Assembly: GCA_048885705.1 (NCBI GenBank)
Contig: JBHLLJ010000004.1
Span: 1-60,626, forward strand
Direction: 5' to 3'
DNA length: 60,626 nt
From: Candidatus Hermodarchaeota archaeon
GTDB taxonomy: Archaea > Asgardarchaeota > Lokiarchaeia > Sigyniarchaeales > SOKP01
Both the position numbers and the translations under genes were made by a program. Position 1 is the stretch's first letter. Each line of letters begins with the position of its first letter. The notes beneath the pieces were generated by a model, which saw only the letters and a list, made by a program, of their open reading frames with translations, was not told the origin of the DNA and made no database searches. Shown piece after piece: positions 27,860-43,630 of this stretch.

Positions 27860-28234
27860 TCATTTAGTTTTTAAAGAAATTAAATCTGAATCTCCAAAAT
27901 CAAGTATCCCTATAATAGAAATCATATAAGGTTTAGCGCAAGCTAAACCTAAATCCCAACTTGAACCTTTGTATTTATAAATGAAAATTTTATCTTTTAA
28001 ATGACTATTGTAATTATCAAGCTCATTAATTAATTCTGTAGGGCAATTATTGCTTATAATTAACATCTTATATGGATTTTCTTTTTGTAAGCGTTTAAGA
28101 ACTTGGCTTTTTCCATAAATAATTTTACCAGTTTTATAAGCTACTTTGATATTGGTGTCTACATCAAATTCCTTTGTTTTTTTCCTACTTAGATCAACTT
28201 TCTCTTCGGATGTTTTAGTTTTTCTTTTTACCAT
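27860..28234 (-). CDS. rpl30e: 50S ribosomal protein L30e
   Basis: KTGK...G, NNCP, Y.GSS.DLG.AC.KPY, D.GDSD; basic N-terminal extension. Confidence 0.94.
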   Translation of the reverse strand: MVKRKTKTSEEKVDLSRKKTKEFDVDTNIKVAYKTGKIIYGKSQVLKRLQKENPYKMLIISNNCPTELINELDNYNSHLKDKIFIYKYKGSSWDLGLACAKPYMISIIGILDFGDSDLISLKTK

Positions 28235-42298: not shown

Positions 42299-42366
42299 TA
42301 TAGATCTATAAGGTATTTAGAATCTTATTTAATGAATTTTTTCCAATGAAAAAGAAAAAAAATAAT

Positions 42367-42439
42367 AATCCCAAAACCCTTGCAAGGTCGTCTATGAGTG
42401 TCTCACTTTTTCACACTCAATTCATTCTTATCTGGGATT
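42367..42439 (-). promoter_or_regulatory. SECIS-like RNA element in the 3' UTR of the UxxU peroxiredoxin-like gene
   Basis: Minus-strand transcript: UAA-GA-AUGAA-U-UGAGUGU-[GAAAAAGUGAG]-ACACUCA-U-AGAC, giving an AUGA/GA core, 7-bp stem and A-rich loop; flanked by AAUCCCAGA / UUUGGGAUU pairing. Confidence 0.75.
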
Positions 42440-42955
42440 TTTAATATATTTATCAATTAGTAAAATCATTGCTCCTACTGAAGGTCTATCTGTCTTGTCT
42501 TTTCCTATATATTTCCAAATAATTTTACCATTCTTATTGATTAAGAATTTACTAGGTATCGCTTGTTTTACTTTAATTTTTCCCCAACCTTCAGCAAACC
42601 AATAGACATCATAGTCTTTAGCAATTTTAGCACCTCGATCAGAGATCATATCTACAGGGAAGCCATTTTCTTCTTTAAATTTTCTCAAAAGTCCGGGTGT
42701 ATCACTAGATATGGATATAATTTTTATATTTCGTTTTTTAAACTCTTGGAAGTATTCGGTTAAATGTATCAATTCTTCTTTTCAATAAGTTCACCAACTA
42801 CCTCGGAAAAAATCAATTAATATGCCGTTATGATTTTTTAATAGATTTTCGAAACTTATTGGTTTGTTATGTATATCTACTGTATTTATCATTGGTGCTG
42901 TAGAATGTAATGTCAATCCCCTAGGTTTATGTGTTTCTATTTTATTTGAATCCAT
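42428..42955 (-). CDS. Peroxiredoxin-like (AhpC/TSA) selenoprotein with UxxU motif, 175 aa
   Basis: From ATG at 42955: MDSNK...GL...AP....DI....I....LL....ILIDFFRGSW-TGA-TY-TGA-KEELIHL, continuing in frame into the track ORF (ISSD, SD...IA..Y, P..FLI...GKI.W.Y...DRP). TGAs at 42793-42791 and 42784-42782 occupy both positions of the FRG.WCPYC motif. Confidence 0.88.
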
Positions 42956-43093: not shown

Positions 43094-43630
43094 TCACTCA
43101 CTTGAAAATTTTTCAAAAAGGATTTCAGTTATTACATCAAAAGCTCTTTCAACATTAGCACCTGTTTTTGAGGATAATTCAACAAAAGAGGCAAGATTAT
43201 ACTTTTTTGCTGCTAATATTCCATCTTCTCTAGGAACCACTCTAAACTCTTCAAGATCTACCTTAGAACCTATTAACATGATTGGTATATCCCCTGCATG
43301 TTCCCTTATCACTTGTGTCCAATCTGGAAGATGCTCTAATGATGATTGATTGGTAATATCATATAAGAAAAAAGCTCCATTTGCACCCTTACAATACTGA
43401 GAGAGTAAGAACCGAAACCTTTCTTCCCCACCAAAATCCCATATCTGTAATTTTACTTTTTTATCATTGAAATTTGTCGTTTTAGAATAGAAATCTACTC
43501 CAATCGTTAATTTCAAGTCTTCTTGAAAAAAACCCGAAATATATCTTATTGTAAGTGATGTTTTTCCCACGGACGCATCTCCCAACATTAACACCTTAAA
43601 TGTATAATCGTATTGAGTCAAACTAATCAA
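43094..43630 (-). CDS. Rab-like small GTPase
   Basis: YDYTFKVLMLGDASVGKTSL, TIGVDF, KLQIWDFGGEERFR, GSKVDL, ELSSKTG.NV; no C-terminal cysteines. Confidence 0.95.
   Translation of the reverse strand: MISLTQYDYTFKVLMLGDASVGKTSLTIRYISGFFQEDLKLTIGVDFYSKTTNFNDKKVKLQIWDFGGEERFRFLLSQYCKGANGAFFLYDITNQSSLEHLPDWTQVIREHAGDIPIMLIGSKVDLEEFRVVPREDGILAAKKYNLASFVELSSKTGANVERAFDVITEILFEKFSSE

Follow-up and report, generated by a model that had tools for sequence, protein, structure and literature searches.

A probable lokiSECIS element within a k-junction-like three-way junction behind a predicted PrxL selenoprotein gene of an Asgard archaeon

The PrxL gene and its in-frame UGA codons

The stretch of DNA analyzed here, termed the window, comprises positions 1 to 60,626 of contig JBHLLJ010000004.1 (C4 below, where other contigs of the assembly are likewise denoted by C and a number) from Candidatus Hermodarchaeota archaeon (assembly GCA_048885705.1). 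Its minus strand carries a predicted selenoprotein gene of the PrxL family, and an RNA element that overlaps the 3' end of this gene is very probably its selenocysteine insertion sequence (SECIS). The element appears to be of the eukaryote-like type found with PrxL selenoprotein mRNAs of Lokiarchaeia, and it is set within a three-way junction that resembles a k-junction. The gene and its two in-frame UGA codons are as follows.

42955 to 42428, minus strand: predicted selenoprotein gene of the PrxL family, with 175 codons and a UAA stop, TGA being read as selenocysteine (Sec, U)
42793-42791, minus strand: first in-frame UGA, codon 55, read as Sec; the AUGA of the element begins 368 nucleotides (nt) downstream
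42784-42782, minus strand: second in-frame UGA, codon 58, read as Sec; the AUGA begins 359 nt downstream

When TGA is translated as U, the product contains the redox motif G-S-W-U-T-Y-U, and thus the pattern W-U-x-x-U. The protein matches the Pfam families AhpC-TSA (1.9e-24) and Redoxin (7.6e-20), and its best NCBIfam match, to a SelL-related redox protein, is weak (54 bits, under the cut-off). Translation with genetic code table 11 splits the frame at both TGAs and leaves as the sole open reading frame (ORF) a C-terminal part of 114 amino acids (aa) at 42428-42772 on the minus strand.

A search of 61 related genomes from the same genus, order and class at E <= 1e-10 produced 47 PrxL matches, distributed over 33 genomes. 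Every match has one or two in-frame TGAs, and there is no cysteine (Cys)-only homolog among them. Codon 55 aligns with W in public translations that read TGA as W, and the position of codon 58 is occupied in relatives by U or C (WTYW and WSHW versus WSHC in code-4-style translations). Public PrxL relatives are mostly fragments of 108 to 117 aa, and seven database relatives either are translated with W at TGA or start downstream of the TGA. Because entries take these forms, the PrxL family is truncated or systematically mis-annotated in public records. Close relatives of the protein bear the public names "[Candidatus Lokiarchaeota archaeon]" or "[Promethearchaeota archaeon]".

Structure of the 3' element

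The RNA from 42439 to 42367 on the minus strand agrees letter for letter with the transcription given in the original prediction, a note made from the sequence before the present analysis. It can be divided into the following parts, where P1 is the closing stem, P2 the upper (NC) helix and P3 the third arm.

42439-42431, minus strand: P1, 5' strand, 9 nt; the last three sense codons (N-P-R)
42430-42428, minus strand: stop codon UAA, separating P1 from the kink-turn
42427-42426, minus strand: GA, between the stop and AUGA
42425-42422, minus strand: AUGA, beginning 2 nt past the stop
42422 to 42427, minus strand: 5' half of the putative kink-turn (K-turn), in which G42427 pairs with C42390 as the last C-helix pair, followed by an A-A-U 3-nt bulge and the G-A of the sheared pairs
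42421-42413, minus strand: P2, 5' strand, nine positions, of which the top seven are Watson-Crick pairs
42412-42402, minus strand: apical loop of 11 nt, beginning G-A-A-A-A-A and ending G-A-G
42401-42393, minus strand: P2, 3' strand
42392-42391, minus strand: GA opposite AUGA
42390 to 42392, minus strand: 3' half of the putative K-turn, G-A and then an invariant C
42388-42376, minus strand: P3 side hairpin, 5 base pairs (bp), 3-nt loop with an invariant G
42375-42367, minus strand: P1, 3' strand
42349 to 42365, minus strand: U-rich tract immediately past the junction, read from the sequence

The layout described in the original prediction is therefore present in the sequence: AUGA begins 2 nt past the stop, the upper stem has seven Watson-Crick pairs and the loop is A-rich. 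The two non-standard stem positions, U-U and A-A, lie beside the core. It had also been proposed that the last codons of the gene pair over 9 bp with the distal untranslated region (UTR), with a side hairpin between. RNAfold, one of the checks that had been suggested, bears this out: for a 101-nt segment, the three-way junction is both the minimum-free-energy and the centroid structure. We infer that the core adopts a K-turn, with its nucleotides assigned to K-turn positions as listed.

Comparable T-rich tracts are found 3' of the PrxL elements of relatives. Archaeal transcription can terminate at oligo-U, and on this ground the U-rich tract is likely to be the end of the transcript.

Assignment as a lokiSECIS element

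Mariotti et al. (2016, PMC4989117) described in Lokiarchaeota a PrxL family with a CxxC-type redox box, and in one member, PrxL.1, both Cys residues are replaced by Sec. The associated elements, termed lokiSECIS, lie near the stop codon and always have AUGA 5' of a 9-bp stem, an 11-nt apical loop, and GA or AA on the 3' side. The first five loop positions are A-rich, and the last is an ultraconserved G that mostly follows A (PMC4989117). The same structure was later called the type I eSECIS-like element of Asgard archaea by Huang, Xiao and Zhang (2024, PMC11227280), according to whom 43.2% of the Asgard archaea that use Sec have Prx-like selenoproteins.

The element in the window corresponds to this description at each point. 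AUGA stands directly 5' and GA directly 3' of a stem of nine positions, seven of them Watson-Crick; the loop has 11 nt, begins A-rich, and ends with a G preceded by A; and the whole lies 2 nt from the stop of a gene whose redox-motif TGA is conserved in every one of the 47 matches. Compared with the lokiSECIS of PrxL.1 (PMC4989117), or type I (PMC11227280), the core is identical, and in both genes the two redox Cys residues are Sec. Both the element type and a PrxL gene with two Sec residues were reported earlier (Mariotti et al. 2016, PMC4989117), and the element itself is one more example of that class, of modest interest.

The assignment is also supported by a covariance model, R2, whose training set consists of 30 elements located behind VhuD genes of the genus and includes no PrxL sequences. 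When the window was searched on both strands with filters off, R2 matched 42364-42443 on the minus strand over the full model length (27.5 bits, E 6.7e-5), and the match spans both the closing stem and the side hairpin of the PrxL element. The runner-up among the 27 window matches listed at E <= 10 scored 15.2 bits (E 0.16). Thus, there is detectable likeness between the PrxL element and elements of other selenoprotein genes, as shown by a model trained on VhuD elements only.

Applied to the genome, R2 matched elements behind HdrA (67.1 bits), the C44 ORF (52.3 bits), VhuD on C170 (51.3 bits), the C25 ORF (35.8 bits), VhuU (34.8 bits) and VhuD on C22 (24.8 bits). The window element is absent from the list produced by this search, in which 150 of 7325 candidates were scored. 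A second model, R1, was made from PrxL elements; its genome run, which scored 150 of 3481 first-look candidates, recovered only the window element (one of its own seeds) and the elements on C170 and C41. In a sixth genus, type I junction elements behind selD were matched by R2 with scores of 51.0 and 43.7 bits. Similarity to elements that follow other selenoprotein genes, which had been named as a check on the prediction, was found in the same genome for VhuD, HdrA, VhuU, selD and three unnamed families. Together with the lokiSECIS geometry and the R2 match in the window, these elements favor the proposal that the hairpin is an eukaryote-like SECIS of Lokiarchaeia type.

SECIS elements behind other genes of the genome

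Pattern scans, the models R1 and R2, and inspection identified ten SECIS elements in the genome, and each is located behind a frame that has an in-frame TGA.

C4 (the window): element behind PrxL
C53, C22 and C170: elements behind three HdrA-VhuD tandems
C58: element behind a lone HdrA
C21: element behind a small VhuU-like ORF, with the UGA stop inside AUGA
C95: element behind selD, type II, with a ministem
C25, C44 and C41: elements behind three ORFs without a Pfam match

From a motif only, the gene upstream of the VhuU-like ORF on C21 appears to encode the large subunit of a [NiFe]-hydrogenase. In the HdrA-VhuD tandems a single element accompanies four or five UGAs. It had been predicted that in the PrxL gene one 3' element serves two UGAs three codons apart, and the TGA positions and the single element read from the sequence are as this prediction expects.

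Genes that use Cys in place of Sec served as controls. Among 14 VhuD-like tblastn matches in the genome, all three that bear TGA have an element, whereas the type I pattern is found within 160 nt of none of the 11 TGA-free matches. The pattern also follows none of 21 TGA-free HdrA-like matches. This type I pattern is not fully sensitive, because the true C170 element is missed by it. The original prediction was to be given up if the same hairpin occurred after Cys-only homologs; the homolog search yielded no Cys-only PrxL, and none of the 11 Cys-type VhuD genes has the pattern. An HdrA-like match on C164 that contains stop symbols was considered as a further Sec gene and rejected, its TGAs being solely at frame ends.

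A strict type I scan of the genome gave 113 matches, which are mostly chance, and only the matches with loops resembling those of lokiSECIS are located behind TGA-bearing ORFs. The strict pattern missed the elements on C170, C21 and C41 and that of selD, which were recovered by the models or by eye.

Conservation of the closing stem and the third arm

The ten elements of the genome share one arrangement: the 5' strand of P1, a few nucleotides, the C helix, the 3-nt bulge, the G-A/A-G core with the upper helix, the returning C-helix strand, P3 and the 3' strand of P1. The C helix has one to three pairs and ends with G-C or C-G. P3 is in every case a hairpin of 4 to 6 bp on the 3' (non-bulged) strand, between GA and P1. 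In the original prediction, the side hairpin and the extension of the element into the coding sequence were regarded as atypical. This view is correct only in comparison with eukaryotic SECIS elements; in the present lineage both features are regular, and 10 of 10 SECIS elements of the genome have P1 and P3.

Of 30 fetched PrxL loci, 28 show the element, and all 28 are from the genus; the other two are from a sister family. The element is kept in these loci while identity of the PrxL protein drops to 57%. Some loci have PrxL in two tandem copies, and an element follows each copy. The 28 loci thus contain 32 elements, one of which runs off its locus, and the remaining 31 were aligned (alignment A4). 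Their apical loops are 11 or 12 nt long. The pair equivalent to G42427/C42390 is invariant in 31 of 31 PrxL elements and in 30 of 30 VhuD elements (VhuD model pair 16-54). In the 3' half of the kink-turn, A52 and C53 (first-row numbering) are invariant in the 31 PrxL elements, and G51 is nearly so.

In alignment A4, 87.2% of cells are paired, compared with 80.0% in shuffled alignments (0 of 500 attain the observed value) and 30-55% when the strands are slid. Covariation is 0.314, versus 0.174 in shuffled alignments (again 0 of 500). By helix, the paired cells amount to 93.1% in P2, 82.8% in P1 (columns 7-15 with 72-80) and 85.8% in P3, and the pairs changed on both sides number 7 of 8, 4 of 9 and 1 of 5, respectively. 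For selD, 22 elements from five genera (alignment A5) have 90.0% of cells paired, versus 82.6% shuffled and 29-53% slid, with pairs changed on both sides in P1 (4/6), P3 (3/4) and the ministem (3/4). The 30 VhuD elements (alignment A6) vary little: 94.4% of cells are paired, versus 92.7% shuffled and 26-61% slid, and 6 of 24 pairs are changed on both sides, including 1 of 7 in P1.

The middle G of the P3 loop is invariant in all PrxL (31/31), selD (22/22) and VhuD (30/30) elements, that is, in 83 of 83, and it is usually followed by C or U. Inspection by eye of selD loci from two further families (f18 and f21) revealed the same P1 and P3; the f18 elements are richer in GC and have the UGA stop inside AUGA. 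Cross-family alignments made with MAFFT (A1-A3) were discarded, as the PrxL element was misplaced in them or P3 and P1 were out of register.

Evidence against the assignment and alternative explanations

Several observations weigh against reading the element as a SECIS within a three-way junction, and they bear on three alternatives. At -20.2 kcal/mol (z = -1.79), the folding energy is marginal: 7 of 200 shuffled sequences are at least as stable. In addition, the architecture alone is not diagnostic, because a loose three-way-junction descriptor matches 35 sites in the genome and 23 in the reversed genome, and four of the 35 are true elements. The low z-score, taken with public annotations that cover only a C-terminal part of 108-117 aa, could mean that a chance hairpin lies in an AT-rich intergenic region and that the two TGAs are signs of a gene that is broken or split. 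However, the redox-motif TGA is kept throughout the 47 matches, the element is kept in 28 of the 30 loci, and R2 is an independent model that matches the element at the E value given above. An origin by chance is therefore hardly credible and is the least probable of the explanations considered. What places the element beyond chance is comparison, namely the R2 match and the pair counts, and not its folding energy.

No Rfam family reached its gathering score on the window, and there was no match to a SECIS model. When 42300-42500 (201 nt) was searched at E <= 10, eight matches were obtained; none is to a SECIS family, and all are at chance level, including some resembling C/D snoRNAs. Two of these, snoR21 (17.6 bits, E 5.6) and snR52 (17.1 bits, E 5.7), lie over the element, and kink-turns formed by AUGA and GA are bound by L7Ae-family proteins. 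The element could accordingly be a general L7Ae-type kink-turn RNA that has no relation to Sec, such as a C/D-box-like small RNA or a regulatory site in the 3' UTR. Both matches are, however, far under the gathering score of 45 bits, and E values near 5 were obtained in a search of only 201 nt. The consensus of C/D-box RNAs is RUGAUGA for the C box and CUGA for the D box, and the element contains no CUGA. In this genome, moreover, the element type is found only behind genes with a conserved in-frame TGA. We thus consider a function apart from Sec to be very improbable.

The lack of Rfam matches agrees with the statement of Mariotti et al. that existing SECIS tools and models miss the lokiSECIS elements (PMC4989117). 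It should be added that Asgard SECIS elements are bioinformatic predictions and that a lokiarchaeal SECIS failed to function in M. maripaludis (PMC11881835).

Other difficulties concern P1 and P3. Within PrxL and VhuD these helices are mostly conserved in sequence and exhibit little covariation (P3 of PrxL and P1 of VhuD, above). Their conservation could partly reflect close kinship or, for the 5' strand of P1, coding constraint. The shuffle controls overstate the support, because kin are not independent. Furthermore, the two PrxL loci of the sister family (f2; loci L043 and L044) are folded by RNAfold into three arms that include a closing stem and, on the 3' side, a small hairpin, yet no AUGA/GA core is recognizable at either locus. 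The highest R2 score there is 14.5 bits, and the match immediately past the gene has 13.4 bits (E 0.33). These loci may have a divergent core.

The low covariation leads to the third alternative, in which only the kink-turn hairpin is the SECIS, and P1 and P3 serve to mark or protect the 3' end of the mRNA, to terminate transcription together with the U-tract, or to direct processing. A U-rich tract does lie directly 3' of P1 at PrxL loci, and published SECIS models (PMC4989117, PMC11227280) omit P1 and P3. On the other hand, both helices occur in 10 of 10 elements of the genome whatever the gene, including VhuD elements that have no U-run. They covary among the selD elements of five genera and recur after selD in two further families, and the P3 loop G does not vary in any of the 83 aligned elements. 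No three-armed fold was found after Cys-type paralogs, which were scanned with the type I pattern only. On balance, separate roles for P1 and P3 seem unlikely, and we favor a SECIS of which the junction is a part.

Comparison with known RNAs

In published descriptions of lokiSECIS (PMC4989117, PMC11227280), only the core, the upper stem and the loop are modeled, and P1 and P3 are a feature of the elements reported here. In the account of Huang et al. there are also an internal loop and a lower stem without conserved nucleotides (PMC11227280). No description of a third arm with a closing stem was found in the main-text sections of Mariotti et al. (2016) and Huang et al. (2024) that were consulted, nor in the consulted passages of two papers of Peiter and Rother and of the review PMC13188914. 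The main interest of the present element may lie in its junction frame with a P3 loop G that does not vary in any case examined here, a part that is unmodeled in the published text consulted.

The element resembles eukaryotic SECIS form 1 (SECIS_1, RF00031) in its AUGA/GA quartet of non-Watson-Crick pairs, its unpaired apical As, its position in the 3' UTR and its association with several UGAs per element. Unlike eukaryotic SECIS elements, it has a third arm on the 3' strand and lies 2 nt from the stop. It also differs in that it is matched by no Rfam SECIS model at E <= 10 and in that SBP2 is not reported in Asgard archaea (PMC11227280).

With the SECIS elements of Methanococcales and Methanopyrus (eaSECIS), the element shares the status of an archaeal Sec signal in the 3' UTR. 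Elements of methanogen VhuD genes also carry AUGA and GAC or AAC (PMC4989117). In contrast, the GAA_A bulge and the G-C clamps of eaSECIS are both absent from the element described here.

The arrangement of helices resembles that of the k-junction in the TPP riboswitch (Wang, Daldrop, Huang and Lilley 2014, PMC4005666), in which the third helix lies opposite the loop; in both RNAs, the additional helix (here P3) is inserted in the non-bulged strand. The functions and sequences of the two RNAs are unrelated, and the comparison is between a known k-junction and a secondary structure. In contrast to the TPP k-junction, one to three C-helix pairs separate the bulge from the branch point in the elements of this genome. 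Because these pairs intervene and the fold is known here from secondary structure, we call the element k-junction-like and do not assign it to the class.

Sec machinery and kink-turn proteins

The genome contains the machinery expected of an organism that uses Sec. A tRNA-Sec, SepSecS and selD score over their cut-offs, and EFSec-like and PSTK-like genes score below theirs.

C49:20418-20510: tRNA-SeC(tca), the only one found by ARAGORN, just upstream of SepSecS
C49:20577-21878, plus strand: SepSecS (481 bits, over the cut-off)
C49:15493-16389, minus strand: EFSec-like gene (bacterial selB model: 237 bits, cut-off 242), about 4 kb from tRNA-SeC and SepSecS
PSTK-like gene (146.5 bits, cut-off 290.5)
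C95: selD with one in-frame TGA (185 bits, over the cut-off)
27860-28234 of the window, minus strand: L30e gene (NF002172, 86.8 bits, cut-off 77)

The EFSec-like gene, tRNA-SeC and SepSecS are clustered within about 6.4 kb (C49:15493-21878). ARAGORN without intron search reported only nine tRNA lines for the assembly, which has 3.4 Mb and is 93% complete; this low number may stem from intron-bearing tRNAs or from unassembled genes.

The original prediction pointed to L30e, a K-turn binder encoded in the window. The gene is real, as its NF002172 match indicates, but the suggested connection is not borne out: it is an ordinary ribosomal gene about 14 kb away with no specific link to the element. 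There is a stronger L7Ae-family match on contig C39 (75.9 bits). To our knowledge every archaeon has both L7Ae and L30e, and therefore their presence says nothing specific about the element. SBP2 was not detected in Asgard archaea by Huang et al. (2024, PMC11227280), and no search for SBP2 was made here.

Proposed mechanism

We propose that the element, situated at the 3' end of the mRNA and 2 nt past the stop, would signal Sec for UGA-55 and UGA-58. An EFSec of the archaeal/eukaryotic type, carrying Sec-tRNA(Sec), would be recruited to ribosomes at these two codons, so that each would be decoded as Sec and not as a stop. The product would have a U-x-x-U redox centre.

The signal itself would be a kink-turn formed by AUGA opposite GA and topped by the nine-position helix and the A-rich 11-nt loop. 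In the three-way junction, a one-pair C helix (G-C) would be combined with P3 in the non-bulged 3' strand and with the 9-bp P1. This k-junction-like frame would most probably fix the kink and present P3 and its invariant loop G to a docking protein, and the oligo-U tract would end the transcript. Because the 5' strand of P1 consists of the last three codons, terminating ribosomes must open P1, and therefore the signal must refold between rounds.

A bolder extension, which is speculative though quite possible, is that Asgard SECIS elements are obligate k-junctions. P3 would then be recognized by an Asgard-specific factor (EFSec, or an L7Ae-family protein together with a partner), the geometry would be determined by P1, and eukaryotic SECIS elements would have arisen by loss of the arm when SBP2 took over. 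If so, this would explain why models of eukaryotic and methanogen SECIS elements miss those described here, and it could bear on the failure of the lokiarchaeal SECIS in M. maripaludis. A requirement for the third arm would also change what belongs in reporters and binding assays, as well as the picture of the step from archaeal to eukaryotic SECIS elements.

Candidate selenoprotein families and neighboring sequences

Models that include the junction find selenoprotein genes, and the genome studied here yielded three UGA-bearing families in this way. A 2026 review (PMC13188914) counts 11 archaeal selenoprotein families, of which PrxL, AhpF-N and DsbA-like are confined to Asgard archaea. The families of the C25, C41 and C44 ORFs seem not to be among the archaeal families of this review, as judged from the passages of its text that were consulted.

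The C25 ORF (C25:10085-10564, minus strand; L008:183-668, minus strand) encodes 161 aa without a Pfam match. It has two adjacent TGAs within the motif G-C-U-U-(E/Q), and a type I junction SECIS lies past its stop. Of 61 family genomes, 53 have relatives, which cover all 13 genera, and the listed full-length matches have two or three in-frame TGAs. The adjacent TGAs in the G-C-U-U motif are present at 12 of 12 fetched loci (L105-L116), of which 10 have the SECIS. This family is not in the lists of archaeal selenoprotein families in the cited passages of PMC11227280 and PMC13188914, and we regard it, from its sequence, as a candidate selenoprotein family.

The C41 ORF (C41:11615-12535, minus strand; L120:716-1636, minus strand) encodes 307 aa, again without a Pfam match, and has one TGA within a conserved A-T-U-N-x-x-G-Y motif. 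A type II junction element with a ministem lies at C41:11528-11610 on the minus strand. The TGA lies close to the N terminus and 5' of the first ATG; an in-frame TTG and two GTA codons precede it, and some relatives have no ATG, GTG or TTG there. The start of this ORF may thus be non-canonical. Of 41 family genomes, 39 have relatives, and every relative carries exactly one TGA. The A-T-U-N motif is present at all 10 fetched loci (L122-L131), and the type II junction element at eight of them.

The C44 ORF (C44:22952-23182, minus strand; L009:200-433, minus strand) is hydrophobic, has 77 aa, and contains the motif G-G-G-G-U-A-C; its type I junction SECIS is the one matched by R2 at 52.3 bits. 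The ORF was detected in just 3 of 41 family genomes, and every copy has a single TGA.

The ATGA-stem-loop pattern also matched a near-identical 35-nt repeat that occurs five times, on C80 (14126, 9139 and 6625, minus strand) and C181 (2178 and 4818, plus strand). In the window, the gene directly upstream of PrxL (43094-43630, minus strand) encodes a protein of 178 aa with the motifs G-D-x-x-V-G-K-T and W-D-x-G-G. By these motifs, the protein is presumably related to small GTPases of the Ras/Rab type.

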